64,000 bases of DNA from assembly GCA_963753975.1 (NCBI GenBank), contig CAVWEH010000001.1:288001-352000 (forward strand). The letters run 5' to 3'. Below the pieces are notes generated by a model that was not told the origin of the DNA, did not search any database, and saw only the letters and a list, made by a program, of their open reading frames with translations. This document shows, one piece after another, positions 2,909-64,000 of the stretch (the stretch's first letter is position 1; the number at the start of each line of letters is the position of its first letter). The translations under genes were made by a program, and so were the position numbers. The stretch comes from an uncultured delta proteobacterium (lineage in GTDB: Bacteria > Desulfobacterota > Syntrophia > Syntrophales > Smithellaceae).

Positions 2909-3064
2909 GAGTCTCATCCCGCTGGCCTCGGCCACGGGATCAATTCGGCCAACAAATTTCAGCGCACTTCCACCGCTTTGCGGGATAGTTCGTCTAACAG
3001 ATTTCAGTGCGCTTCGCTTCTAAAATCTGGGACTCACTACGTTTTGGAGATTTGAGTCTCATTA
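2909..3064 (-). repeat. Nested GA-mismatch hairpin repeat (outer unit plus inner unit starting at 3039)
   Basis: Reverse complement is near-identical to 10148-10306 apart from two ~20 bp insertions present there. Confidence 0.9.
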
Positions 3065-5928: not shown

Positions 5929-5968
5929 TGCATTTATCTTAGTTAATAAATCTGTAAGGAGTTTTGTT

Positions 5969-9484: not shown

Positions 9485-10078
9485 TTAGCCCAAGTTTCCG
9501 TTAACAAAATCCCAATTAATCAAATTTTGAATGACAGCAGAAAGATAATCCGGTCTTCTGTTTTGATAATCGAGGTAATAGGCATGTTCCCATACATCGA
9601 TAGTCAGGAGCGGTTTCTGGCCATGGGCAATGGGAGTATCAGCATTAGCTGTTTTTGTTATTTTTAATTGCTTTCCCTCCAAGACCAGCCAGGCCCAGCC
9701 ACTGCCAAATTGAGTGATTCCGGCGTTTTTCAGTTCTTCGGCAAATTTATCATAGGTTCCCCAAGTAGCGTTTATCTTGCCGCCAATTGTTCCGGTAGGT
9801 GTGCCCCCGCCTGATTTCTTCAGGCATTGCCAGTAGAAAGAATGATTCCAAACTTGAGCCGCATTGTTGAAGATGCCGGCCTTGGCCGGATCTTTGGCTG
9901 CGATCTTAATAATTTCTTCCAGTGGCTTTTCTTGAAGGTCGGTTCCGGCAATCAGCTTCACTAAGTTATCCACATAAGCTTTGTGATGCTTACCATAGTG
10001 GAAATCCAAAGTATTGGAGCTGATATAGGGCGCTAGCGCGTCTTTCCCGTAAGGCAGGTTTGGTAAATTTATAGCCAT
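9485..10078 (-). CDS. sodB: Fe superoxide dismutase
   Basis: HYGKHH, FNNAAQVWNH (Fe-type), FGSGWAWL, DVWEHAYY; start placed at the ATG after AGGAG. Confidence 0.95.
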   Translation of the reverse strand: MAINLPNLPYGKDALAPYISSNTLDFHYGKHHKAYVDNLVKLIAGTDLQEKPLEEIIKIAAKDPAKAGIFNNAAQVWNHSFYWQCLKKSGGGTPTGTIGGKINATWGTYDKFAEELKNAGITQFGSGWAWLVLEGKQLKITKTANADTPIAHGQKPLLTIDVWEHAYYLDYQNRRPDYLSAVIQNLINWDFVNGNLG

Positions 10079-10146
10079 CTTTTGTTCTCCTTTCTTCATT
10101 GTTTCTTTAATGTCTAAAATATAAGGCGCAATTCCGGAATGTCAAT

Positions 10147-10662
10147 CAATGAGACCCAAATTTCCAAAACGTAGTGAGTCCCAGATTTTAGAAGCGAAGC
10201 GCATAACCTAAAGGTCATCTACGACTGAAATCTGTTAGACGAACTATCCCGCAAAGCGGTGGAAGTGCATAACCTGAAGGCCACTGCCGCTGAAGTTTAC
10301 TGGACGTAATGAGACTCAAACTTTAAAAGCGAAGCGTATTAAAGTTTGTTAGTCGAATTATCCAATAGCTAAAGGCTATTGGAAATTATCCCCGAAGCGA
10401 AGCGTAGCGGGATGAGGAGACCAGTAAGCGCAGCTTATTGGGATCAGTACCTTGGTGTAGGTCGAATTAATGAAACTCAGGTATTGCAAGCGAAGTGCAG
10501 CAATATCTGCTAGCTGTAATGAGACTAAAACTTCAAAAGCAAATAACCTAAAGGTCACTATAGGCGCATTGAAGTTTTTTAGCCGAATTATCCAATAGCC
10601 AAAGGCTATTGGAAATTATCCCGCGCCAGTCGGGGTTGATCCTACCAGAGGTGGAATTGATC
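10147..10662 (+). repeat. Cluster of nested GA-mismatch hairpin units (starts 10147, 10172, 10307, 10468, 10517) with three micro-insertions
   Basis: Repeated TARTGA-NNC...AAGCGAAGYGCA...GAAYTATCC units with self-complementary 10 bp arms. Confidence 0.92.
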
Positions 10663-10723: not shown

Positions 10724-11641
10724 TTAATCGGCAGTGTTATGCCCCATTCTATATTGGAGCCAATTTATATAAAAGAAAGTGACAATAGCGAATATTAATG
10801 AAGGAAGAGCGGCTTCCTTGCTAAAGATAATAAGTGCTATACCGCCGGAAAGCTCGTAATTTTTCATAGTTCCCAGAAGAAGAGAAGAAGTAATCTTTTT
10901 TTCAGCGATCTGAAAAAGCTTTCCAGTTTTTTCAATAGTCAGAGCTAACAAAAAAATGCCAATAACAGCAATGAAAACAATGGAAGAAAGGTCGTCCGGC
11001 CAATTCAAGAGTATATCCCTTCCGTTTGCCGTCAGGGAATAAAATACAATAAATAGACAACAATCGGTTATTATGTTTTCATATGGTTCAATGATTTTAT
11101 CCCATTCTTTTTCCACAATGAGTCGCGAAAGCGCCAGCGGCAGTATAATTAATTCGACTATCAGCAAAATAATACCCCAAAAATTAAAGGGAATATTTTT
11201 AAGAAAACCCAAGCCTATCAATGGTATAATTAAAATAGCGCCCAAATAAGCTCCCGCAAATCCGGCGTATGTCGAAGTAGCGTCGGCCCGGAATGATTTA
11301 CTCAAGGGCAATATGGCCACTGCGGGCGGTATAGCGGCAATCAGCACCATGCCTATCCAGAGGGCTTCGTCGAAAATAAAAAACATGCCGGTCAATATTA
11401 TCAAATTTCCCCAGAGAAGATAATTCATAACATTGCCGCGGATAGCCGAACTGATAAGTTTTTTGGGGCGGCGGAAAAAACCGCGCGGTATTTTCAAAGG
11501 TGTAATTGTCAGAATGACCGTGAGCGCGGGCAAGGTCAGCGCGGCGGCGACTACATTTGCCTGAGGTAAAAGAAAACCGCAAAGCACGGACGCGAGAAAA
11601 ACTATGTTGGAGCGGGAAACAAGATATTTGAAACGGGCCAT
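10724..11641 (-). CDS. Bile acid:sodium symporter-family membrane transporter
   Basis: About 9-10 hydrophobic segments; GMVLIAAIPPA and GTMKNY.L..GIAL motifs; start chosen at MARFKY. Confidence 0.7.
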   Translation of the reverse strand: MARFKYLVSRSNIVFLASVLCGFLLPQANVVAAALTLPALTVILTITPLKIPRGFFRRPKKLISSAIRGNVMNYLLWGNLIILTGMFFIFDEALWIGMVLIAAIPPAVAILPLSKSFRADATSTYAGFAGAYLGAILIIPLIGLGFLKNIPFNFWGIILLIVELIILPLALSRLIVEKEWDKIIEPYENIITDCCLFIVFYSLTANGRDILLNWPDDLSSIVFIAVIGIFLLALTIEKTGKLFQIAEKKITSSLLLGTMKNYELSGGIALIIFSKEAALPSLIFAIVTFFYINWLQYRMGHNTAD

Positions 11642-11645
11642 TATT

Positions 11646-12476
11646 TTACCTCTGAAAATGCAAGATTTTTTTAACTCCAAAAATAATCAAAAGGAAAGCT
11701 ACATTGCAGATTACTATAGTTCCTCCTGCCGGCAAGTTCAATAGAAAAGAAAAAATTATGCCGTTAACTACCGAGAGGATGGAAATAACGGCAGAGACAA
11801 TAATAGTTGTTTTAAAGCTGAAAGAAAACTGCAGCGCCGTAAGGGGGGGAATAATCATCAATGCCGAAACCAACATTATACCCGTAACTTTCATCGCTAA
11901 AACAGCGGCCACGGCAGTCAATAATAAAAGAATGATATTGATTCTGTTTGTCTTGATGCCCATGCTTTTGGCGAGTTCTTCGTCAAAAGTAACTGCAAAC
12001 AGGTCATTATAGAAAAAAATAACAGTACCAACTACAACTATAAAAACAATAAAAGACAGCAAAAGCTCCGTTGGAGTTACCGTGAGGATATTGCCAAAGA
12101 GGTAGCTTAATAAATCGACATTATAGCCTCCCGAGAGACTGGCCAGAATTATGCCTGCGGCAATTCCGACGGAAGAGACGATACCGATGGCTGCATCACC
12201 GTGAATACGTTTGTAGCGAGTCAGTTGAAGTATGGCCAGAGATGAAAGCATAACCAGAGGCAGGGCGGCCAACGTAACATAAACAGGGCTGAAACCAATT
12301 AATAATACGACTGCTACACTGCCAAAGGTAATGTGCCCAAGTCCGTCGCCAATCAAGGAAAGACGGCGCAAAACGAGAAATACCCCCAACACGGAAGAAA
12401 CGGCGGCAATGAGCATGCCGGCAAGCAAAGCTCGCTGAACGAATTCATATTGGAATATTTCCGAAAGCCCGATCAT
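11646..12476 (-). CDS. znuB: Zn/Mn ABC transporter permease
   Basis: LGVFLVLRRLSLIGDGLGH, YLFGNI, G.MLVSALM..P. Confidence 0.92.
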   Translation of the reverse strand: MIGLSEIFQYEFVQRALLAGMLIAAVSSVLGVFLVLRRLSLIGDGLGHITFGSVAVVLLIGFSPVYVTLAALPLVMLSSLAILQLTRYKRIHGDAAIGIVSSVGIAAGIILASLSGGYNVDLLSYLFGNILTVTPTELLLSFIVFIVVVGTVIFFYNDLFAVTFDEELAKSMGIKTNRINIILLLLTAVAAVLAMKVTGIMLVSALMIIPPLTALQFSFSFKTTIIVSAVISILSVVNGIIFSFLLNLPAGGTIVICNVAFLLIIFGVKKILHFQR

Positions 12477-15278: not shown

Positions 15279-15928
15279 TATTTCCAGCCCAAAAATCCGA
15301 AAGCGAGTATATTCATCAAAACCGGCACGGCGTAAATGATTCCCACGGTGATAATTTTAGTTTTCAGCTTTTTTAAGCTGATCACTAAAATCGCCCAGCA
15401 GAAGAATTGGAAGTAGCCGATAAGAAAGATCAGCCAGATACCCTTAAAAGATAAGTTCCAGAAAGGGTATTCCCAGACGAGAAGTCCGCCGATATTCAAA
15501 AGGCATTCGATGAATACGCAAAAAGCGCTGTAACCGATAGCCCAAAACCATTTTTCCGGCAGGCCGAGAATCTTCTCTTTTTTACTTTTCGAAAGAGTGT
15601 GATAGTAGATAATTCCCAGAAGCAGAAACATGAACATTATTTCGATGTTCCAACCCACCAGCGTCCGGAGCGCCGTATCTCCCGGAGTTGTCCAGAGAGC
15701 GGAACGTTGGGTAAGATACATCACCCAGCTGTTCCATGTTTCATTGAAGAAATCCGCGCCGAAAATCGCAAGACCCGCGAAGACGGCATCCCAGTTTTTA
15801 GATTGGCGCGCCTCCTTTATTTCCCGAGTGTAAACATAAAAGACAAAAGCTAAAAGAGGGATTATATACCACTTAAGCATGGTAAGATCTCTCAGACCGT
15901 TTAAGGCTTGTTGGGTTGCTGGCGTCAT
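15275..15928 (-). CDS. Hypothetical membrane protein
   Basis: 217 aa, about 6 hydrophobic segments, GGAGG RBS. Confidence 0.8.
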   Translation of the reverse strand: MTPATQQALNGLRDLTMLKWYIIPLLAFVFYVYTREIKEARQSKNWDAVFAGLAIFGADFFNETWNSWVMYLTQRSALWTTPGDTALRTLVGWNIEIMFMFLLLGIIYYHTLSKSKKEKILGLPEKWFWAIGYSAFCVFIECLLNIGGLLVWEYPFWNLSFKGIWLIFLIGYFQFFCWAILVISLKKLKTKIITVGIIYAVPVLMNILAFGFLGWKY

Positions 15929-15971
15929 ATAACCTCCTTCTCGATGTTTTGGTTACAAAATGTCTGCTGGT

Positions 15972-16078
15972 GAATTCGGTAGCGAGCTCATTCCCCGTTG
16001 CTTGCTGCGGGGGTAAGCGAGCGCATACTGTCCTTAAGAATCGAAGATTATCCGCAACTTGCCGCGGAGAGCTTCAAT
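15972..16078 (-). mobile_element. Two-hairpin non-autonomous element (second copy at 38219-38301)
   Basis: Reverse complement ATTGAAGCTCTCCGCGGCAAGTTGCGGATAATCTTCGATTCTTAAG...GCTCGCTACCGAATTC matches the 38219 copy at both ends. Confidence 0.7.
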
Positions 16079-16202
16079 CTTCTTATCAGGCAATAAAATA
16101 TTTATACAGTTGAATTATACTATAACGTCATATAAACAAAAAGACAAAAATTTGTTAATTTCAGCGCTGGATTTTTATAGAGAATGTGTTTAAATAAGCT
16201 TG

Positions 16203-16307
16203 CCCCGTTAGAAATGTTGAAATTATTATATACCTGCTATGATTTGTCAGCCGCGACTTTGATTAAAAAATAAAGATTAGCCCCAAGTTATTACATTTCT
16301 AACGGGG
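16203..16307. mobile_element. 105 bp MITE-like element with CCCCGTTAGA terminal inverted repeats
   Basis: Perfect 15 bp TIR CCCCGTTAGAAATGT/ACATTTCTAACGGGG. Confidence 0.85.
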
Positions 16308-16324
16308 TGAAGGAGAAATGAACT

Positions 16325-17326: not shown

Positions 17327-17415
17327 AAATTAAATGGCTTATGCTGCACCATGTATATTTTTTGAGAAGTACTAATAACAGGAAAGTTTATAGTATAAAA
17401 TGATTTCTAACGGGG
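17318..17415. mobile_element. 98 bp CCCCGTTAGA-family element
   Basis: CCCCGTTAAAAAT...ATTTCTAACGGGG; overlaps the K+ channel stop codon and the next gene's RBS. Confidence 0.8.
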
Positions 17416-17423
17416 AGGAAAAT

Positions 17424-18245: not shown

Positions 18246-18337
18246 CCCCGTTTAGAAATTAGATAACTTAAAGCCTCGGAACCTCGAAAATCTCCTCAGG
18301 AGTTATGTTTCTATGAATAGAAAAATTTCTAACGGGG
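18246..18337 (+). mobile_element. 92 bp CCCCGTTAGA-family element carrying AGGAG and ATG
   Basis: TIRs; aligns end to end with 21457-21547. Confidence 0.88.
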
Positions 18338-20388
18338 AAAATATCCCCCGCTACAATCACGCAAACTTTAACGCGGCCTTAGCCCCGAAGGGCAGGTTCC
18401 GCATTCTGCTGCCGCTGATCCTGATGATGATCTTCCTCTCCCCCTTCCCTGTGGTAGCCCAAGACCTTACTTGCAGCGACCTTCCCAAACTGATGGAAGC
18501 ATTCTACGCCAAACACTACGTGATGAAGAGTACCACCCCGGAGATCAGGATGCACGCTGTGGACCAGATGGTCAAGCGCCTTGATCCCTCTAAAACGCTG
18601 CTGTACGAGTCTGATTTGAAAAAGCTCAAACCGCTTCTCGCGGACCTGTTTGAAGGCGCGGGAAAAGGCAACTGCGCCTCGCTCCAGTCGGTTTATGACC
18701 TGCTTGTTGCCCGGGTACGGGAGAATGAAACCATCGTCAAAAAGATTCTGGGGCCGGACTTCCGTCTGGACATGATGACGGAGCTGAATATCAACGTGGA
18801 CAAACGCCCCTATCTGAAGACAATGACAGAAAAGCAGGGGCTTCTGAAAAAGATCGTGCAATTCCAGATCGAAAACTCACTGCTCGCCGGCATTGACCTG
18901 GCAACAGCTAAAAAGAAGCAGATACACCGCTACGAGTTACAGACGATGCGGGTGGTTGAGCAAAATCCCGCCGAGCTCATTACAACCTCCGCCGAGGCCT
19001 TCGCCCTGGCCCTGGATCCGCACACCAGTTACCTGCCCCCCAAAGAGCTTGAGGATCTCCAGATTCAGATGAATCTTTCTCTGGAGGGGATCGGGGCTAT
19101 TCTGAGCAGCGACACCGGCTTTACCATTATTGAAGAATTGGTTCCCGGGGGCGCCGCTGAGAAAACCGGTCTGTTGAAGCCAAAGGATAAAATCATCGCC
19201 GTGGCTCAGGAAGGGGAAATGCCCGTTGACGTCATCGACATGGATCTGCGCGACGTTATCAGCATGATCCGCGGCAAGAAAGGCACACGAGTAACCCTAA
19301 CGATCCTGCGGCAGGGGAAGCGCAAGGAGCGCTTTGATGTAACCATCACGCGCGACAAGATCGACGTGAAGGAGCAGGAGGCGAAGATCACCTACGAGAT
19401 TCGGAAAGTGAGCGGAAGGCAGTATCGCTTCGGTGTAATCGATCTTCCTTCCTTTTACGGCGGCGAAAAGGGCGGCAAATCCAGTTACGAAGACGTGAAA
19501 AAACTTCTTGCCGAGGCAAAAAGACAGCGAGTGGACGGCATCGTGCTGAACCTGTCGCGCAACGGCGGTGGGCTGCTCGAAGAGGCGGTGCGCCTTACCG
19601 GCCTTTTTATTGGTAATGGTGGAATAGTAGCGGTCAAGGACAGCCAGGGGCGGGAGACGATTCTTGCCAATGGTTCTGCCGCATCGGGAAAGGACGGTGA
19701 CGAACGCCGCATCAATGCGGCCCCTGCGGAGGATCCACGGGCACTCTACCTGGGCCCCCTTGCCGTTCTGACGAGCCGCCTCAGTGCGTCGGCAAGCGAA
19801 ATAGTCGCGGGCGCTCTGCAAGATTACCACCGTGCGGTGATCGTCGGCTCGGACCATACCTTCGGCAAGGGTTCCGTGCAGGCGCTAATGCCGCTGCCCT
19901 GGGAGCTTGGCGCAATGAAGGTCACAACGGCGTTATACTTCCTGCCCGGCGGCAAATCGACGCAGAAGACGGGTGTGATGGCGGATGTCAGGCTGCCCGG
20001 CTGGTTTGTATTAGAAGATATCGGTGAAGCGGCGCTGGACTATCCGCTGCCGGCTCAGGCGATCGAGCCCTTCCTGGGCGTGCGGGAGAAAGCTGCGCCG
20101 CATTGGAAGTCTGTTGACGAGCCACTGATCGCAAGGCTTTCGTCCAAATCGCAGAGCCGCGTGGCGAAAAACGCAAAGTTTGCCAAAATCATCAAAGACA
20201 ACAAAGAAGCCGCGGAAAAGAAGGGCATCATCCAGCTTGATGATTTACGCAAGACGATAAAGGACGAAGACGCAGACATTGAGAATGAAACGCGTTCCGA
20301 ACAAAGGCAAAAGGCCCGGGAGCAGTATGCGCCTTTTGTAAACGAGAGCGTCAACATCCTGCTCGACGAAGTAGTGAGACTCAACTGA
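18313..20388 (+). CDS. prc: Tail-specific (carboxy-terminal processing) protease, S41 family
   Basis: LDPHTSYL, LEGIGA, PDZ, NGGGLL, SASASEIVAGALQDY, TFGKGSVQ; true start uncertain. Confidence 0.92.
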   Translation: MNRKISNGENIPRYNHANFNAALAPKGRFRILLPLILMMIFLSPFPVVAQDLTCSDLPKLMEAFYAKHYVMKSTTPEIRMHAVDQMVKRLDPSKTLLYESDLKKLKPLLADLFEGAGKGNCASLQSVYDLLVARVRENETIVKKILGPDFRLDMMTELNINVDKRPYLKTMTEKQGLLKKIVQFQIENSLLAGIDLATAKKKQIHRYELQTMRVVEQNPAELITTSAEAFALALDPHTSYLPPKELEDLQIQMNLSLEGIGAILSSDTGFTIIEELVPGGAAEKTGLLKPKDKIIAVAQEGEMPVDVIDMDLRDVISMIRGKKGTRVTLTILRQGKRKERFDVTITRDKIDVKEQEAKITYEIRKVSGRQYRFGVIDLPSFYGGEKGGKSSYEDVKKLLAEAKRQRVDGIVLNLSRNGGGLLEEAVRLTGLFIGNGGIVAVKDSQGRETILANGSAASGKDGDERRINAAPAEDPRALYLGPLAVLTSRLSASASEIVAGALQDYHRAVIVGSDHTFGKGSVQALMPLPWELGAMKVTTALYFLPGGKSTQKTGVMADVRLPGWFVLEDIGEAALDYPLPAQAIEPFLGVREKAAPHWKSVDEPLIARLSSKSQSRVAKNAKFAKIIKDNKEAAEKKGIIQLDDLRKTIKDEDADIENETRSEQRQKAREQYAPFVNESVNILLDEVVRLN

Positions 20389-20636
20389 AAACGAGCACAG
20401 CAAAGGTTGAAGTGTTAGTCGAACTAATGAAACTCCAATTTCGAAAGCGAAGCACATAGAAATTGGATAGTTGAATTATCCCCGCCATAGGCGGAGGATA
20501 TCGAAGATATCTGTGATATCCCCGAAGCAAAGCGTAGTGGGGTAGTGAGTCCCAAGTTTTAGAAGCGTAGCGCACTGAAATTTGTTGGACGAACTATCCC
20601 CGAAGCAAAGCGTAGTGGGGTAATGACACTCGCTAA
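20372..20636 (+). repeat. Cluster of GA-mismatch hairpin units (20372, 20425, 20543, partial 20621)
   Basis: Same unit architecture; 28 bp direct repeat TATCCCCGAAGCAAAGCGTAGTGGGGTA at 20517 and 20595. Confidence 0.9.
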
Positions 20637-21216: not shown

Positions 21217-21465
21217 ATGCATTATGTGTACGTGCTTAAGAGCATAAAAGACAAAAAAATGTATACGGGGTGCACAGAGGATTTACGGAAGCGTTTTCGT
21301 GAGCATAATATTGGGAAGGTTAATTCCACAAAAGGGCGAGGGCCTTTTGAATTAATATACTATGAGGCCTCGTCAGATAAAACAGATGCTTTTGCCCGAG
21401 AGAAATATCTGAAATCAGGGATGGGGAAAGATCATGTTCTATGTAAAGGGGATTTACCCCGTTAG
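21217..21465 (+). CDS. Stand-alone GIY-YIG nuclease
   Basis: YVYVLKS...YTGCTEDL.KR..EHN.G...STK.R.PFELIYYEA.....A..RE.YLKSG.G. Confidence 0.9.
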   Translation: MHYVYVLKSIKDKKMYTGCTEDLRKRFREHNIGKVNSTKGRGPFELIYYEASSDKTDAFAREKYLKSGMGKDHVLCKGDLPR

Positions 21466-21547
21466 AAATTGCCTAACTTAAAGCTCCAGAACTTAGAAAA
21501 CCTCCTCAGGAGTTAGTTTTATATGAATAAAAAGATTTCTAACGGGG
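21457..21547 (+). mobile_element. 91 bp CCCCGTTAGA-family element followed by a second right end (to 21565)
   Basis: CCCCGTTAGAAAT...ATTTCTAACGGGG then AAAAAATCTCTAACGGGA. Confidence 0.88.
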
Positions 21548-22245
21548 AAAAAATCTCTAACGGGATAAAAAGCTGGCCCAAGGACGACCGGCCGAGGGAG
21601 AAACTGCTTAAGCGCGGCGCAGGCACTTTGAGCAACTCCGAGCTTCTGGCGATACTTCTGCGCACCGGAGTTAAAGGCAACAGCGCCATTGATCTCGCGA
21701 GAAAAATACTTAGTAAATTCGATACATTTCGCAATATGAGCCACTCTGATATCCGCGATTGGAAAGAATTTAAAGGTTTAGGCCCCGCCAAAATTGCACA
21801 AATAAAAGCCGCGTTGGAAATCGGCAGGCGTTTCCGTGAAGATGAAGTAGTGAGTGTCAAGCAAAAAATTGCCACGGCCGGGGATGTCGTCGATATCATT
21901 ATGCCGCAAATGCGCGACCTCAAGACGGAGGTCTTTAAAGTTGTCTACCTCAACAGCAACAACGGAATAATTGATATTGCCGATGCGGCTCAAGGCACTG
22001 TAAATCAGGCCGCGCCGATTGTCCGGGAAATTATTCATACGGCATTACAAAAATTTGCCGCCTCTATTATTTGTGTTCACAATCACCCCAGCGCGAATAT
22101 TGCACCCAGCCCGGAAGACAAAAAAATAACGGCGGAGTTATCAGCCGCATGCAAGCTGATGGGAATCAGAATGCTGGATCATATCATCATCGGCGACGGT
22201 AGCTACTTTAGTTTTACAGATGAGGGAATGCTTGAATCAATATGA
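21523..22245 (+). CDS. radC: RadC (JAB domain) protein
   Basis: RPREKLL..GA..LS..ELLAILLRTG, GLGPAK, HNHPS...PS.ED, LDHIIIG. Confidence 0.95.
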   Translation: MNKKISNGEKISNGIKSWPKDDRPREKLLKRGAGTLSNSELLAILLRTGVKGNSAIDLARKILSKFDTFRNMSHSDIRDWKEFKGLGPAKIAQIKAALEIGRRFREDEVVSVKQKIATAGDVVDIIMPQMRDLKTEVFKVVYLNSNNGIIDIADAAQGTVNQAAPIVREIIHTALQKFAASIICVHNHPSANIAPSPEDKKITAELSAACKLMGIRMLDHIIIGDGSYFSFTDEGMLESI

Positions 22246-31109: not shown

Positions 31110-31168
31110 GTTCAAGAAAATCGGAACGGTTCTATTGAAGAGACGCGCATTTCGTGAAGAGTGAAACG
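31110..31168 (+). repeat. Direct repeat copy 1 (copy 2 at 32324-32386)
   Basis: AATCGGAACGGTTCTATTGAAGAGACGCGCATTTCGTGAAGAGTGAAACG. Confidence 0.8.
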
Positions 31169-31202
31169 TGCAGAGTGAAGGTTGCAGAGGTGTATGCCGG
31201 AA

Positions 31203-32323: not shown

Positions 32324-32386
32324 GTTCAAGGGGGTAATCGGGGACGATTCTATTGAAGGGACGCGCATTTCGTGAAGCGTGAAACG
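32324..32386 (+). repeat. Direct repeat copy 2
   Basis: AATCGGGGACGATTCTATTGAAGGGACGCGCATTTCGTGAAGCGTGAAACG. Confidence 0.8.
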
Positions 32387-32486
32387 GGCAGCGGGATTCG
32401 CCAGTCTGCAATACAAATTTATACCTTGTCTTTTTTCAATTCATCCTTTTATTATAACTACAATTAAGAAATGGGATGGTTTCATT

Positions 32487-32587
32487 ATCCCACGTCGTCG
32501 TAGATGCCCTTCAGGGTGCTTCGCTTCTGGGATTAATTCGACTTTGAAATTTTTCTGTACTTCGTTTGAAAAATTTTAGTCTCATTG
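32487..32587 (-). repeat. GA-mismatch hairpin unit with micro-insertion (32499-32518)
   Basis: Reverse complement CAAT-GA-GACT-AAAATTTTTC-AAACGAAGTACA-GAAAAATTTC-AA-AGTC-GA-ATTA. Confidence 0.85.
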
Positions 32588-32600
32588 AAAGGAGGTTACC

Positions 32601-33266
32601 ATGGAATTAGCTGCTGCAATCAAGGGAAGAAGGAGTATTCGCAAATTCAAATCGCAGGATGTACCTAAAAGTGTAATTACGGAAATTCTGGAAGAGGCGC
32701 GCTGGTCGCCATCGTGGGGAAATACCCAGCCCTGGGATTTGTATGTATTAAAGGGTAAAACACTGGCTAAGTTTAAAGAAATGAATCTCAAACAAACGCT
32801 GGCGGGTGCTGCTATTGCCCCCGATGTGCCGATGCTCGAAAAATGGCCGGACGCCATGAAAGCCAGATATGGAGAGCTGGGCAAGGTTATTTTAAGCGTG
32901 CAGGGCATAAAAAGAGAAGATAAGAACGCACGTGATAAGTATTATCAGAATATGGTTTCGATGTTTGATGCCCCTTGTCTGATTCTGGCCTGTATTTCCC
33001 GGGATAATCTAGTCGAATACCAGATGCTGGATATCGGCCTCATCGCGCAAACGATCTGCCTCGCTGCTTACGGCAAAGGCCTGGGAACGTGTCTCTTAGC
33101 CGCAGCCGCACGTTTCTCCGCCGAAATCAGAAAGATAGCGGCAATTCCCGCCGATAAAAAAATTGTTGTGGGTATCGCTCTGGGCTATCCGGATCCGTCA
33201 TTTCCTCTCAACAATTTTGCGCGGGAGAGAGCAAAGCTGGATGAGTTCGTCCATTGGATGGAATAA
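32601..33266 (+). CDS. Nitroreductase family protein
   Basis: RRSIRKF, ARWSPSWGNTQPW, GLGTC, IALGYPD. Confidence 0.92.
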   Translation: MELAAAIKGRRSIRKFKSQDVPKSVITEILEEARWSPSWGNTQPWDLYVLKGKTLAKFKEMNLKQTLAGAAIAPDVPMLEKWPDAMKARYGELGKVILSVQGIKREDKNARDKYYQNMVSMFDAPCLILACISRDNLVEYQMLDIGLIAQTICLAAYGKGLGTCLLAAAARFSAEIRKIAAIPADKKIVVGIALGYPDPSFPLNNFARERAKLDEFVHWME

Positions 33267-34594: not shown

Positions 34595-34733
34595 AAGATT
34601 CGGCAATATTCGGGGGTTGATGCAATTAAATTAATAGCAAGGGAAATCCCCTTCGATCCCTTTTTCACCCTAAAGAGTACGCGAAAAAAGGGGAAGTAAA
34701 AGGCTGCTCAAAATCCCCAGCGATCCGGCTTTT

Positions 34734-34791
34734 TACCCTGATAACCTTAATAACCTGAAGGTCACTATAGGGTCACATTAGGTCATCTGCG
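34734..34791 (+). repeat. Self-nested micro-element array (3 left halves then 3 right halves)
   Basis: TACCCTGA TAACCTTAA TAACCTGAA GGTCACTATAG GGTCACATTA GGTCATCTGCG. Confidence 0.85.
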
Positions 34792-35215
34792 GCCGGAATG
34801 ACAGTGGTAGATTTTAGATCGTAGCGGCGCATAAGGTGCGATTCGCAATGACAACCCGGGGCATATCACAATATTATTGAGGTTAATAAATATAATAGCC
34901 TGGTTAAGTGTTTAAAAAGATTCTCCAAGACGCCCGCCCGCAGAACAGCTTTTTAAAATCATCAGGGGTATTTTTTCCGAAAGGAAGGCCCAGCTTGTTT
35001 CTCTCCTTCCAATCAAAGCTTTTATTGATAAAAATATTCTATTCTGGAGCAAATATTGCATTATTTTTTACAAGGGAAGATGTAGCTGCCGTCAGCCCAG
35101 ATAATGATGGCACTTTCACAATTCTCGAGCTGATTGTTTATCTCGCCATCTATTTAATCTGACGTGACCGGGAGCTGACTAAAAAATGACGATTTTTAAA
35201 ACCAAGGAGTTAAAT

Positions 35216-35623: not shown

Positions 35624-35727
35624 GAAAAGTATGACTAATCGCGGTACAATCTTTATCTTTGACAATTGGCGATATTAAACGTGTATCGTGTCTCGTGAAG
35701 CGTTGGGTGTGTCGGGCTAAAAGTATT

Positions 35728-35796
35728 TAACCTAATAAACTAAATAACCTAAAGGTCACTATAGGGTCACTATAGGGTCACGCGAGGCCATCTGCG
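35728..35796 (+). repeat. Self-nested micro-element array (3 left halves then 4 right halves)
   Basis: TAACCTAA TAAACTAAA TAACCTAAA GGTCACTATAG GGTCACTATAG GGTCACGCGA GGCCATCTGCG. Confidence 0.85.
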
Positions 35797-35881
35797 ACCG
35801 GATTTCCTTTTCGGATAAGGTGTCACTAATCTCGCTAAAAAACGTTAATTATCTACGTTTTCCATCCAGATTAACGATTTA

Positions 35882-38218: not shown

Positions 38219-38301
38219 ATTGAAGGTCTCCGCGTCAAGCCGCGGAGAATCTTCGATTCTTAAGAAACAATATTATTCGGTATTCGCTCGCTACCGAATT
38301 C
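38219..38301 (+). mobile_element. Shorter copy of the 15972-16078 element (second hairpin absent)
   Basis: ATTGAAGGTCTCCGCGTCAAGCCGCGGAGAATCTTCGATTCTTAAG...GCTCGCTACCGAATTC. Confidence 0.7.
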
Positions 38302-38734: not shown

Positions 38735-40111
38735 GTGCAAGATTTCACCGAAGGCAATATCGGCAGACAGGTTGTTAATTTCAGCACACCGCTAATGTTA
38801 GGCAATCTGCTCTTGTCCGTTTACGGTATCATCAACATGATCTGGGTAGGCCGGCTTCTGGGCCACACAGCCGTGGCTGCAATCTCCGCCAGCCTGCCGA
38901 TCATCATGCTGATGCCGGCATTTCTCATCGGCCTGGCCATGGCCACTAATGTCCTTATCGCCCAGGCTTTCGGCCGCAAGGATACGGCACTCCTCAGAAA
39001 AATCCTGGCGAATTCCTTTTTCGCCTCTATCCTGTTCTGTCTCGTTATCTCCATCATCGCGCTGGTGCTGCGCCGCCAGTTACTCGAATGGGTACATGCG
39101 CCGCAGGAAATTCAGGACATGGCGCTTTCTTATCTGACGATTATGATGGCCGCGCTGGTATTTCAGTTCTTTGTCTACTGGATGACGGCCATGCTGCGCG
39201 GCCTGGGTGACGCCAGAACGGTGGTGAAAATCCTAATCCTGCTCACGGTGTTTAATATTGTTCTTGTGCCGCTCTTCATTCGCGGCATCGGCCCTCTGCC
39301 TCCTCTCGGCGTGGCCGGTGCGGCATGCGGAACGGCGCTGGCTTCCATGCTGACCTGTATCATCGGCTATATCTATCTTGTGCGGCATAATCCTTACATT
39401 AATATGCACAGCTGGGACTATAGTCTGGATTGGCACATCATCCGGGAAGTTTTTGAAATCGGTGTGCCCGCCTCGATGCAGATGCTTGTGGTCTCATTGG
39501 CCGGGGTATTCATTATCTCGCTCGTCAACAGTTACGGTACGGATGTTACCGCGGCCTTCGGCATCGGCATGCAGATCGACCTTTTGGCATCCATTCCGGC
39601 CATGTCCATCGGGATGGCGGCAACCTCCATTGCCGGTCAGAATCTGGGAGCGCAGAAGATGGATCGCGTCTTTCAGACTTTGCGCATGTCGGTGTTTTTC
39701 GGGCTGGCCATTGCCCTTACCTGCACCGCGGTACTGGCGATTTTTCCTGATTACATAGGCGCCATTTTCCTCAAGCAGTCAGCCGAACATGCAAATGTGC
39801 TGAATCTTGTGGCCGAATATTATCATTGGATGGCGTTTATTTTTCCCTGCTTTGCCGTCATATTCGTCATCCAGGGCGTCCTGCGCAGCGCAGGCGACAC
39901 GATGGCCTTGCTGGTTCTCTCGTTTGTCGCTCTGATCATCATCCGCATTCCTCTTGCCTACGTGCTCGCCGGCCCCTTTGGGTTCAAACAGGAGGGCATC
40001 TGGATGGCAATGCTTTTCAGCAGCACTCTGGCCGTAGGGCTAAACTGGCTCTACTACAGGGGTGGCCGGTGGAAGAAAAAGCGGATATTGGAAAAGCAAA
40101 AACCGTTGTGA
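38735..40111 (+). CDS. MATE family efflux transporter
   Basis: DFTEGNI, LRGLGDA, LGVAGAA.GT, GQNLGA, LRSAGDT; about 12 TM. Confidence 0.93.
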   Translation: MQDFTEGNIGRQVVNFSTPLMLGNLLLSVYGIINMIWVGRLLGHTAVAAISASLPIIMLMPAFLIGLAMATNVLIAQAFGRKDTALLRKILANSFFASILFCLVISIIALVLRRQLLEWVHAPQEIQDMALSYLTIMMAALVFQFFVYWMTAMLRGLGDARTVVKILILLTVFNIVLVPLFIRGIGPLPPLGVAGAACGTALASMLTCIIGYIYLVRHNPYINMHSWDYSLDWHIIREVFEIGVPASMQMLVVSLAGVFIISLVNSYGTDVTAAFGIGMQIDLLASIPAMSIGMAATSIAGQNLGAQKMDRVFQTLRMSVFFGLAIALTCTAVLAIFPDYIGAIFLKQSAEHANVLNLVAEYYHWMAFIFPCFAVIFVIQGVLRSAGDTMALLVLSFVALIIIRIPLAYVLAGPFGFKQEGIWMAMLFSSTLAVGLNWLYYRGGRWKKKRILEKQKPL

Positions 40112-40332
40112 AAATCCAATTCTAATGAAACTCAGATATTATCCCGTTCCGGGATGTCGCGTCTTGGAAAATAGCCTTCGGCTCCTTCCGGAGGTGCTCC
40201 ACAAGCGCAGTGCAGTAATATCTGCAAGTTGTAATGAGACCCAAGTTTCAGCGCATCACATTTCTGAAACTTGTTGGTCGAATTATACCGCATAACTGCG
40301 GCAAATTATCCCACGTGCGAAGCTAAGTGGGG
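40106..40332 (+). repeat. Nested GA-mismatch hairpin cluster (outer 40123, inner 40232-40303, 60 bp insert 40141-40200)
   Basis: CAGATATT[60 bp]AC pairs with GTAATATCTG; inner unit splits GTTG/AATTA. Confidence 0.88.
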
Positions 40333-41086: not shown

Positions 41087-41259
41087 TCACTACCCCGCTA
41101 CGCTTCGGGGATAGTTTCCAATAGCCTTTAGTTGTTGGATAATTCGACTAACAAAAGAGTTTCTGTCCCACATGGCTTCGCATGCGGGATAGTTCCACTA
41201 ACGCTTCGAGCTGCACTTCGCTTGCTCTTAGCGGGTGTCACTAAATTTGGGACTCATTA
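41087..41259 (-). repeat. Nested GA-mismatch hairpin cluster
   Basis: Reverse complement TAATGAGTCC..., inner TAGT-GA-CAC...GTG-GA-ACTA, then AGTCGAATTATCCAACAACTAAAGGCTATTGGA. Confidence 0.87.
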
Positions 41260-55100: not shown

Positions 55101-55424
55101 CGTCCCATTATCATGACCTCGCTGGCCTTCGGATTCGGGATACTACCGCTGGTGCTGGCGAGCGGCGCGGGCGCAGGCGCCCAAAAGGCCATCGGCACCG
55201 GTGCGCTGGGTGGGGTAGTGACCGCCACTTTCCTGGTAACCTTATTTGCGCCGCTCTTCTATGTCTTGATTGAGAAAACCTTCGGCAAACACAGGAAGAA
55301 TAAAACAGCCCTGGTAACCTTATTTGCGCCGCTCCTCCATGCGTTGATCGAGAAACCCTTTGGCAAACACAGGAAGAATAAAACAGCCAAGACAGACAGC
55401 GCAAATCCATCAAGGGATAAATGA
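52171..55424 (+). pseudogene. RND efflux permease (AcrB/MexB-like) with two frameshifts (near 53965 and 54105)
   Basis: FFLDRPVFAWV, GLLVDDAIVVVENVER, KNAILIV, RLRPIIMTS in three consecutive frames. Confidence 0.88.
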
Positions 55425-59390: not shown

Positions 59391-59568
59391 TTGTGAAACT
59401 CCAATTCCGAAAGCGAAGCGTATAACCTGAAGGTCACACGTCGGAATTGGCAAGTTGTAATGAGACCCAAGCTTCAGAAACAGAGTGCGCTGAAGCTTGC
59501 AGGTCGAATTATCCCGCGAAACGGAGGGCATGAACCATAAAGCGTGCTTCGGGGTTCATGCCCGTGGG
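59391..59568 (+). repeat. Nested GA-mismatch hairpin cluster between acn and icd (outer 59391, micro-insert 59422-59440, second unit 59458)
   Basis: CCAATTCCGA/TCGGAATTGG and CAAGCTTCAG/CTGAAGCTTG perfect arms. Confidence 0.88.
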
Positions 59569-59574
59569 TGATTT

Positions 59575-63260: not shown

Positions 63261-63645
63261 TAAGTACCTCCTTTTAGCATGCGGTTTCCCTTTTTGTTAA
63301 AAACACAGAAGCATCTCCCGATGACTTATAAGTGCCGGAATGTAAGGGGTAATTTACTGCAAAGAGAATGAAAAATATTTGCCGACAACATGCCTTTAAC
63401 TTTGGGGGCAGTTACATACTAAAAATGTATTCACCTGTCAAATTTATTTTGCAATCTACGATAAAAAGGTATAGGAAACGACACTCAAAAATTTAAAGTT
63501 TAGTGGAGCCCCCTATGGCAGGAGCCGGAGGCGCCCTAAAATAACGCGACCTCCCGCGGGTCACGGTGCTTTTCTCCTCCGGCCGGAGCTGAGCGATTCC
63601 AAGTCGCGGGATTGAAAACTCGTCAAAATTACGGCAAGGATGGTT

Positions 63646-64000
63646 ATGAAGATCTGGAAACAAGTTTTTTTAGTGGTATTTTTTTTCTTCGCTATTATTT
63701 TTACCGTTGATGTCGGACGCTATCTTTTTTATCCCGATGTGGCTTATTTGAAAAAACACAATCCGGGGGAAACCGCTTTTATGGAATACAGGGAAAAAAC
63801 CTGGCAACAAAAAAAGGTGAAGAAGAAAATTAAGAAAATCTGGGTGCCAATTTCTGAAGTATCTCCTTATGTGATGAAGGCTGTAATCATTGCGGAGGAC
63901 CGTAAATTCTGGTCGCATGAAGGATTTGATTTTGAAGCGATGCAAAAGGCTCTGGAAAAAGATATCGAGAAAAATAAAATTCAGGCGGGCGGCAGCACTA
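63646..64000 (+). CDS. mtgA: Monofunctional peptidoglycan transglycosylase, N-terminal part (runs off window end)
   Basis: My translation from ATG 63646: TM helix, then WVPISEVSP...KAVIIAEDRKFWSHEGFD...GGST; not in the ORF track. Confidence 0.88.
   Translation, partial: MKIWKQVFLVVFFFFAIIFTVDVGRYLFYPDVAYLKKHNPGETAFMEYREKTWQQKKVKKKIKKIWVPISEVSPYVMKAVIIAEDRKFWSHEGFDFEAMQKALEKDIEKNKIQAGGST

Follow-up and report, generated by a model that had tools for sequence, protein, structure and literature searches.

Among the parts of bacterial genomes, small intergenic palindromes rank with the least understood, and linking one class of them, the REP sequences, to a single enzyme family (RAYT) took decades. 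The attC sites of integrons and the attP site of the CTX phage recombine as folded single strands. Cyanobacterial small dispersed repeats of about 20-27 nt are said, after Elhai et al. (2008, Genome Research), to have in common a fold and not a sequence and to insert into themselves and into other repeats, an RNA intermediate having been proposed for them; we know of no enzyme for these repeats. The foot that defines REP elements is given as 5' GT[AG]G (PMC6006769), and a tnpA-REP (Y1) gene flanked by the repeats, one for each repeat family, forms a REPtron. In the account of PMC3049150, BOX elements have no transposase of their own. Here we analyze an array of small hairpins located at positions 10147-10662 of a 64,000-nucleotide stretch (hereafter the window) of the genome of an uncultured member of the Smithellaceae. 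The nearest known kinds are REP/BIME/REPIN elements, BOX-type composites and the cyanobacterial small dispersed repeats. With the first, as they are described in PMC3116915 and PMC6006769, the hairpins share a high copy number of intergenic imperfect palindromes, a conserved foot, mispaired or bulged stems, mosaic clusters and a patchy occurrence; according to the same sources those elements are thought to act as folded single-stranded DNA (ssDNA). With the BOX, RUP and SPRITE repeats of Streptococcus pneumoniae they share modular chains of hairpins and a parasitic distribution that is uneven in close relatives, as portrayed in PMC3049150. Among the titles and abstracts listed in a literature search on Smithella palindromes, none deals with these repeats.

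The array lies between sodB (9485-10099, minus strand) and another minus-strand gene (10724-11680). It contains no reading frame, is made entirely of small hairpins and, on re-reading, its sequence matches the description given in the first-pass annotation, which had taken the hairpins for a structure-selected, dispersed mobile family. This view is supported by covariation, by filled and empty sites and by a patchy spread among genomes. The explanation that we favour, and on balance think probable, is that the array is composed of non-autonomous, gene-less mobile hairpin modules that move as single strands and depend on an enzyme acting in trans.

The core unit is about 58 nt long. Its foot, or clamp, reads T-A-R-T / GA / G-A-C-Y opposite R-G-T-C / GA / A-Y-T-A; the arms covary freely, a 2-nt bulge is present on the 3' side, and the 12-nt loop contains a C-GNA-G mini-hairpin in which R24-Y30 and C25-G29 close a GNA or ANA triloop. 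A small ATCCC...GGGAT hairpin usually follows the unit, and the second TCC...GG hairpin that had been annotated is therefore real. A second inner type repeats the clamp inside the clamp (CGCT-GA-AAAC ... GTTT-GA-AGCG, e.g. 20372-20423). Among the 105 distinct full-length copies of the genome, the opposed GA/GA was found as invariant as had been claimed, being kept in 103 to 105 copies (G6 in 104, A7 in 105, G50 in 103 and A51 in 105), and T5 and A52 never vary. What is observed is an invariant TGA and an invariant GAA opposite each other in the fold; 'G.A mismatch' is a geometric reading of it. Most stem pairs are paired in 97-104 of these copies and by many pair types; the loop-adjacent pair, for instance, is GC in 45, AT in 31 and CG in 20. 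The exception among the stem pairs is 9-48, which is A.C in 22 copies. When 4+2+4 clamps lying 30-90 nt apart with complementary flanks were counted by their middle dinucleotides, GA/GA together with its mirror TC/TC was the commonest, at 120 against a median of 13.

The covariance model of the unit, R1, comprises 27 units, seven from the window and 20 diverse ones from the same genome. In the 27-sequence alignment 93.6% of the cells pair, compared with 76.9% in shuffles and 26-39% in slid controls. Both sides change at 16 of the 20 pairs and none of 500 shuffles attains the score, which bears out the covarying stems of the first-pass annotation. The window has no match in Rfam at gathering thresholds, and in E-value mode the segment 10100-10700 returned two chance-level matches only.

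Evidence for mobility was obtained by comparing orthologous spacers in two species of the same genus, G011 and G013, at about 85-89% DNA identity. A composite at 59394-59571 is absent from the orthologous spacer of both species, where the flanks read through with no duplication. Conversely, the spacer 5934-5955, empty here, holds a two-unit composite in G011, and in G013 the same composite carries an extra unit-plus-small-hairpin module nested in a loop. At an ATGTAA site upstream of xerC, three different units are present in the genome of the window (G000), G019 and G021, and the site is empty in G011 and G020. Within the genome, the comparison of near-identical arrays gave 60 paralogous filled/empty events with exact boundaries, which are not independent of each other. 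Several kinds of module insert in this way. An 18-22-nt TAACCT...GGTCA mini-hairpin enters apical loops and its own loop, a CCCAGC..GCTGGG mini-hairpin enters the GAA triloop, a 69-nt module made of a unit and a small hairpin enters the loop after AAACG, and whole units enter between the G and the A of the 3' clamp (GTTG^AATTATCC) or stand head-to-tail after GAATTA. The insertions lack target duplication and their polarity is strict; their left flanks differ (TTTG, GTTG, CATT, TAA and the loop AAACG), and some junctions have a few bases in common, e.g. TAGTG, AATTATCC or TAA. For the first units of clusters, TTTT occurs within 18 nt in 32 of 116 cases against 15% in random spacer windows, no more than a two-fold excess; some of the T-rich tracts are the tails of intrinsic terminators, also in Bacteroidales, and several units overlap stop codons.

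The focal array is a Russian doll of such nested modules and not a simple tandem series; all its parts lie on the plus strand. By sequence reading, it opens with the 5' half of a host unit (10146-10171; clamp TCAAT-GA-GAC, arm, and loop to AAAACG), which stops within its own loop, and a complete unit is nested there at 10172-10246 (TAGT-GA-GTC ... GAC-GA-ACTA; R1 match 10174-10244, 32.6 bits). The nested unit is near-identical to the minus-strand unit at 2983-3040 (inverted repeats I3 and I5) except for a 20-nt mini-insert, TAACCTAAAGGTCATCTACG, in its apical loop at 10204-10223, so that the two loci form an exact filled/empty pair with no target duplication. After its clamp, a second small hairpin, TCCCGC-AAA-GCGG, is read at 10247-10262; this hairpin and the unit travel together as one 69-nt module. 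The 3' part of a unit follows at 10263-10306 (direct repeat family D3) with a second 20-nt mini-insert at 10270-10289, and ends in GGACG, where the next unit adjoins. This is the canonical 58-nt unit TAAT-GA-GAC ... GTC-GA-ATTA with the loop AAGCGAAGCGTA (10306-10363), the best R1 match in the window (82.7 bits) and the reference copy of family D1. Beyond it lie a CCAATAGC..GCTATTGG hairpin, for which present/absent pairs are found elsewhere in the genome, and a second copy of AATTATCC (10362-10391, D14); an ATCCCCG ... CGGGAT hairpin with a GCGAAGC loop (10388-10413, D9 and D11); a degenerate unit, seen by sequence reading and lacking an R1 match, that ends in GGTCGAATTA (10411-10469); and a unit of the AAC/GTT clamp type (10467-10525; R1, 46.1 bits), whose 3' clamp is broken after GCTG by the next unit. 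The latter (10517-10593; nhmmer match of 78 nt, R1 match 10526-10581) carries a 20-nt mini-insert at 10544-10563 and forms filled/empty pairs with copies at C4:357295 and C5:10551. Terminal small hairpins (CCAATAGCC..GGCTATTGG and CCCGCGCC..GGGG) and the tail GGTGGAATTGATC close the array (10592-10662; D14, I6).

The first unit, at 10146, touches the -35 hexamer of the best promoter-like site in the region (TTGACA-16-TATATT, minus strand 10145-10118, score 11/12), which faces sodB and ends exactly at the start of the first hairpin. A unit starts at the same edge in six species of the genus; among them the first unit alone is kept, and the orthologous arrays are mosaics.

A profile search of the 2.43-Mb genome found 184 copies (95 on the plus and 89 on the minus strand) in 124 clusters, and R1 gave 141 matches among the 150 genome candidates scored. 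According to crude open reading frame (ORF) calls, 176 of the 184 copies are intergenic. Those in co-directional spacers divide into 59 sense and 67 antisense copies, so both orientations relative to genes do occur, as the first-pass annotation had stated; the spacer types, 126 tandem, 29 divergent and 21 convergent, follow the total lengths of these spacers (267, 78 and 57 kb). Because the GA strand is invariant and indifferent to the direction of transcription, the hairpins appear not to be kept for host messages, and with gene orientation random the invariance of this strand must serve the propagation of the element itself. The earlier claim of a DNA-level role holds at least as a role outside messenger RNA, a host mRNA role being disfavoured by the 59 to 67 count; folding energies do not separate the two strands, with either DNA or RNA parameters. 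A wider host role, in which the hairpins are terminators, mRNA stabilisers, processing sites or nucleoid-protein sites kept by selection, would account for the conserved copies at the sodB promoter edge and in the xerC-hslV spacer and for the units that stand after intrinsic terminators; REP and BOX elements are described as affecting the transcripts that carry them (PMC3049150). We nevertheless judge such a role very unlikely: orientation is random with respect to genes, placement is proportional to spacer length, 11 of 41 relatives have no hairpin at all, and sister species differ in whether a given orthologous spacer is filled.

The hairpins are strictly polar with respect to each other. 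Mixed orientation was found in none of the 46 multi-unit clusters, and the 31 of the genome's 68 mini-insert core motifs that fall within units all share the orientation of their unit. This strict polarity points to a single-stranded intermediate or target.

The distribution was analyzed at several taxonomic levels. Among 41 genomes of the family Smithellaceae, 30 have a unit, 12 have 60 or more matches and 11 have none. The lowest copy number is 0 and the highest exceeds 130, both extremes occurring inside the genus of the window, and the top R1 counts per genome are lower bounds (at least about 136). In other families of the order, one genome of 16 has four weak matches; in a 301-genome sample of the phylum, true hairpins were found only in the family and in that one neighbouring genome, the remaining pattern matches (seven in six genomes) not being hairpins by eye and the reversed control pattern giving 13. 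A scan of species representatives, made with a gap of 38-44 nt that admits the longer variants and leaves canonical gap-36 units outside the pattern, found the same clamp with other pairing arms in 19 stretches of Omnitrophota, seven of Bacteroidota, two of Planctomycetia and nine of Smithella-like metagenome-assembled genomes (MAGs), these phylum names being the labels on MAG records. Five genomes of other phyla gave 47, 15, 7, 7 and 1 model matches; in these genomes, too, a second small hairpin is present and units stand after terminators or ribosome-binding sites. In 34 units of other phyla, the inner helix shows two-sided changes at all ten pairs, with 98.9% of the cells paired; the clamp was the search key for this set and its constancy there carries no information. 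The IMG/VR collection contains nine exact matches in seven tailed-phage contigs that encode Mu-like head and tail proteins, and blastn found no match in the PLSDB plasmids. Taken together, this is the distribution of an element that spreads horizontally and undergoes booms and losses.

Copying could in principle proceed with no dedicated enzyme, by template switching where forks pause (hairpin loops, T-runs) and by gene conversion, the self-correction of palindromes keeping the stems paired. The short microhomologies at junctions and the mosaic structure of orthologous arrays would suit such a process, and no tested transposase family tracks the repeats. Self-correction should, however, erase the GA/GA, which is invariant, and a single genus spans copy numbers from 0 to more than 130. 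Furthermore, the sequence of the foot is constant across phyla (with the reservation that the clamp was the search key there) and the arms are not, and a foot conserved across phyla while the arms vary points to recognition by a protein. We regard an enzyme-free origin as quite improbable.

Our preferred explanation, single-stranded movement with the help of an enzyme, may be set out as follows. The comparisons show that modules and the mini-hairpins of 18-22 nt are copied precisely, without target duplication and in one polarity, into unpaired spots: apical loops of resident hairpins, the step from G to A in the 3' clamp, stop codons, and the T-rich stretches that follow terminators. In the mechanism that we propose, the modules would move as single strands, more likely of DNA than of RNA, and the invariant TGA...GAA foot may be the site that is recognised or cut by the trans-acting enzyme. 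DNA is preferred over RNA because of the C-GNA-G loop, which is stable in DNA, and because reverse transcriptases are scarce. An RNA intermediate, in which transcribed hairpins are reverse-transcribed or otherwise copied back into loops, is to our mind unlikely. Self-nesting and a common fold without a common sequence recall the cyanobacterial small dispersed repeats, polarity would suit single-stranded RNA equally well, and tandem G.A pairs are common in RNA; however, the reverse transcriptase domain RVT_1 is absent from eight of the 12 high-copy genomes and no promoter is evident within the units. In addition, the C-GNA-G triloop is described as typical of DNA and not of RNA, C-GNA-G and GCGAAGC mini-hairpins being reported as exceptionally stable in DNA (PMC13037366, PMC3201870).

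To identify a candidate mover, enzyme families were compared with hairpin copy number over the 41 family genomes, and no family among Y1_Tnp, RVT_1, TnpB and Y2_Tnp was found to track the hairpins. The link to HUH/Y1 transposases that had been put forward did not survive this comparison: no Y1_Tnp gene is present in the genome of the window (completeness 95%), and Y1 genes do not track copy number. Some Y1_Tnp gene is present in 29 of the 41 genomes, including eight of the 11 hairpin-free ones, and is absent from four of the 12 high-copy genomes (60 or more copies), one of which is 98% complete. The 30,290 bases around the ten best Y1 genes, 1.5 kb to each side, are free of hairpins. The TnpB zinc-ribbon domain occurs in three of 41 genomes, none of them high-copy, and Y2_Tnp in only three of the 12 high-copy genomes. 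The genome of the window has no Resolvase, IS110 DEDD domain, rve or DDE_Tnp_1 match, other DDE families being outside the search. An all-against-all comparison of its proteins showed scarcely any multi-copy gene (20 small groups, the largest with three members), and the genes near arrays or between inverted near-identical arrays are ordinary ones (hydrolases, PolX, an ABC ATPase, a cation efflux protein, Mut7-C, HIT and an aminopeptidase). Searches with the 3'-terminal word (12-mer, two mismatches) and for long-range clamp pairs were dominated by chance matches and no autonomous copy was seen in them. The enzyme pattern is against the Y1, Y2, TnpB and reverse transcriptase families, with the proviso that drafts can miss insertion sequences.

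These results bear directly on the possibility that the hairpins belong to the REP/REPIN type or derive from IS200/IS605 elements and are mobilised in trans by a Y1 HUH transposase, either RAYT or TnpA, whose substrate is the single-stranded hairpin. A hairpin substrate, the lack of duplication and polar insertion beside own copies fit the logic of IS200/IS605 and REP elements as described in PMC6006769, Y1_Tnp genes are widespread in the family, and 21 of 105 feet read TAGT, which resembles GT[AG]G. On the other hand, the gene is missing from the genome of the window and from a third of the high-copy relatives, the surroundings of the Y1 genes contain no hairpins, TnpB is rare, the fourth base of the foot is A in 82 of 105 copies, and inverted doublets do not occur. 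We consider a Y1 mover scarcely probable.

The integron-integrase link raised by the first-pass annotation was likewise not shown. Units adjoin without reading frames between them, so there are no cassettes, and the only tyrosine recombinases found in the genome are two fragments, one 396-aa phage-type integrase, an XerD split in two frames, and XerC. The last of these lies above the XerC equivalog cut-off; with the integron-integrase model, whose cut-off is 265, it scores 144.5. The two overlapping frames of XerD (200 and 179 aa; G000:C2:602452-603487) reflect a frameshift or an assembly error, and the same applies to the four stops in the xerC gene of G013 (C1:796188-796994).

The xerC gene of the genome (G000:C2:523289-524200, outside the window) has units on both sides, in the orientation of the gene. 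Of 30 xerC loci of the family that were fetched, five were set aside for size and 25 were examined. At 16 of these 25 loci the stop codon of xerC is overlapped, on the side of the xerC-hslV spacer, by an orthologous unit that has the orientation of the gene; two of these units are degenerate and one lies at a contig end that falls within the unit. The 16 genomes include ones with just 0-8 copies overall. The remaining nine loci have a short plain spacer, and units just upstream of xerC were found in eight of the 25 loci. The 12 best copies at the stop codon align as one sequence-conserved orthologous hairpin, in which three of 22 predicted pairs change on both sides; in arm and loop type it is closest to the Omnitrophota units. 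It is possible that the xerC copy goes back to an old insertion, inherited ever since or retained for a local function in the operon; alternatively, it may be the mark of a cognate enzyme, as with REPs at RAYT genes.

The second of these possibilities leads to another explanation, in which the hairpins are enzyme-less parasites and folded ssDNA is the substrate of a host recombinase of the Xer type, most plausibly XerC/XerD, so that no dedicated transposase is needed. The unit at the xerC stop would then be the master copy or ancestor, with cleavage and strand exchange taking place at the TGA...GAA foot and phages carrying the elements across phyla. Apart from the Xer proteins, the integrase and the two fragments, the recombinase families searched gave nothing in the genome, the xerC-stop unit is present even in low-copy genomes and is joined by units upstream, and the absence of duplication, the strict polarity and the unidirectional arrays are what single-strand exchange by such enzymes gives in integrons and the CTX phage. 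However, the copy at xerC may stem from a single old insertion that was simply inherited. The high-copy genomes G010, G051, G021 and G024 lack it, and G003 has the xerC gene and no dispersed copies. No hairpin was found near 11 Xer-like genes of five other-phylum genomes, two of whose contigs end 130-175 nt past the gene; three loose patterns for a dif-like word gave no clear site, and the insertion sites are many and varied, unlike those of Xer recombinases. We therefore give this explanation a small chance. If true, it would define a new class of mobile DNA, hairpin-sized, using Xer and entering hairpin loops instead of dif.

Several observations weigh against movement of the modules as single strands under a trans-acting enzyme. 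Mobility is deduced from sequence comparisons and no enzyme was found. Many copies may stem from amplified composites, which would make independent insertions fewer than the counts. The old copies kept in place, at the sodB edge in six species and at the xerC stop in 16 of 25 loci, hint at local host functions. Nearest-neighbour models do not favour the GA strand, which is the more stable one in 44 of 74 units when DNA parameters are used and in 41 of 74 with RNA parameters, and G-T cells (55) are not more numerous than A-C cells (60). A replication-strand bias is weak (about 65 against 44, a rough count) and not established, the GC skew tracking the gene strand and contig C5 being a patchwork. 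The gene calls behind the orientation counts are crude ORF calls of our own, several junctions were likewise placed by our own reading, and all genomes besides that of the window are drafts of MAG type, in which repeats and insertion sequences are often missing. Four mapped sequencing runs gave only pile-ups from other copies and repeat joints, with no usable polymorphism signal; the DNA matches among public runs share at most 0.08 of words, and there was no RNA run among those listed.

The other hairpin loci of the window are organized in the same way. A repeat search in the window links the seven loci by the direct families D1, D2, D4, D6, D9 and D14 and by the inverted pairs I1-I9. With filters off and E<=0.1, R1 gave 13 matches in the window, of which 12 are proper-strand units over the seven loci and the thirteenth is an antisense overlap. 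The estimate of about 17 units at seven loci in the first-pass annotation is thus confirmed for 12 units and for all seven loci; the remainder are truncated or variant units seen by eye only, among them 10146-10171, 20372-20423 and 40125-40230. Every clamp quoted earlier, at 10307, 10172, 20543, 20425 and 41243 (minus), is present. The array at 2909-3064 (minus; unit 2983-3040, R1 76.4 bits) lies in the convergent spacer between kdpD and a radical-SAM gene, which in G013 is 66 nt long and without a unit and in G011 holds a different array of 418 nt. The array at 20372-20636 (plus; units 20424-20481 and 20542-20599, R1 74.0 and 77.3 bits) runs across the stop of a tail-specific protease gene and opens with a variant unit whose interior is a second GA-clamped hairpin. 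At 32487-32588 (minus), a small hairpin and the unit 32531-32588 (R1, 65.6 bits) touch the ribosome-binding site of the gene at 32601, and homology with G011 and G013 begins within this array. From the stop of a MATE transporter gene, the array at 40106-40332 (plus) has one unit with a large insert and another at 40231-40288 (R1, 59.9 bits). Upstream of a nitroreductase-like gene, the array at 41087-41259 (minus; I1, I6) contains the unit 41187-41244 (TAGT-GA-CAC / GTG-GA-ACTA; R1, 40.6 bits). Finally, the composite at 59394-59571 (plus), about 178 nt long and placed between the aconitase and isocitrate dehydrogenase genes, consists of two units (R1, 59397-59456 and 59457-59514), a mini-insert and terminal hairpins.

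Other repeats were observed in the window. A different repeat of about 110 nt is located at 63535-63650 (GGAGCCGGAGGC ... CGCGGGTCACGG ... AAGTCGCGGGATTGA) and is lacking from the same spacer of G013; a copy of it at C1:67351-67843 carries a hairpin array directly after AAATAA. The mini-insert word AATAACCTRAAGGTCAC occurs outside any unit at 34732-34797 and 35726-35802, in spacers 1 kb apart, followed in both by tandem GGTCAC(TATAGG) copies (D7, D12). The word CCCCGTTAGAAAT and its complement stand upstream of several genes (16200-16311, 17395-17421, 18247-18345 and 21453-21555), with a 99-nt direct repeat of 83% identity among these loci (D5, D16, I11, I15, I23); the spacer before the gene at 17400, about 85 nt longer than in G011 and G013, holds one CCCCGTTAGAAAT inverted pair. 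These repeats are possibly regulatory or another mobile element. A separate family is formed by a 46-nt inverted repeat pair, 16033-16078 and 38219-38264, with 89% complementarity (I7), and metagenome contigs pile up at 15531-16141. A 78-nt tandem duplication (91% identity, D8) lies in overlapping long reading frames at 55232-55387, and a GTGAA-rich 56-nt direct repeat (88% identity, D15) follows two neighbouring genes at 31123-31178 and 32341-32396.

The hairpins described here combine features in an unusual way: a foot found across phyla, an invariant tandem G.A, nesting down to 18-22 nt, swings in copy number, and no companion enzyme among eight families (four searched family-wide and four in this genome). 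What is new is the range across phyla and phages, the exact anatomy of the insertions, the negative enzyme tests and the xerC-linked copy. Identifying the mover would add a mechanism to those of mobile DNA and could give a very small structure-guided insertion system. There are practical consequences as well: MAG assemblies are broken up by the arrays, spurious reading frames arise from them, and they occupy promoters and operon spacers (sodB, xerC-hslV). A hairpin model is needed for the annotation of Smithella-like syntrophs and of Omnitrophota.

Compared with REP elements, the foot is TART-GA and not GT[AG]G (among 105 copies, the fourth base is A in 82 and G in 21, and the first base is G in 48). 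There is no repeat-flanked RAYT gene, and Y1 genes do not follow copy number; clusters are head-to-tail, with inverted doublets in none of 46, and modules nest in loops. BOX elements, likened here by description only, belong to an unrelated taxon and have the fixed ends A-B(n)-C, whereas any module here can be lodged within another's loop or clamp and several phyla have the same foot. With respect to the cyanobacterial small dispersed repeats, the mini-inserts of 18-22 nt are just one layer, the main unit being a 58-nt clamp hairpin with GA/GA that crosses phyla. The strand-specific, hairpin-dependent insertion of IS200/IS605 elements, without target duplication, is a further likeness, and so in part is the proximity of short target words, although the left flanks vary here; in contrast to these elements, the genome of the window has neither TnpA (Y1) nor TnpB, and TnpB is found in no high-copy relative. 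Miniature elements (MITEs) of the DDE type are set apart by the outer bases, which here are complementary and not direct repeats (TAGT...ACTA, CAAT...ATTG), and by the lack of target duplication. Unlike attC sites, the hairpins come without gene cassettes or an integron integrase and enter many insertion sites; with attC and CTX attP they have in common a hairpin read by its shape and by a short foot with unpaired bases, unidirectional arrays and insertion without duplication.

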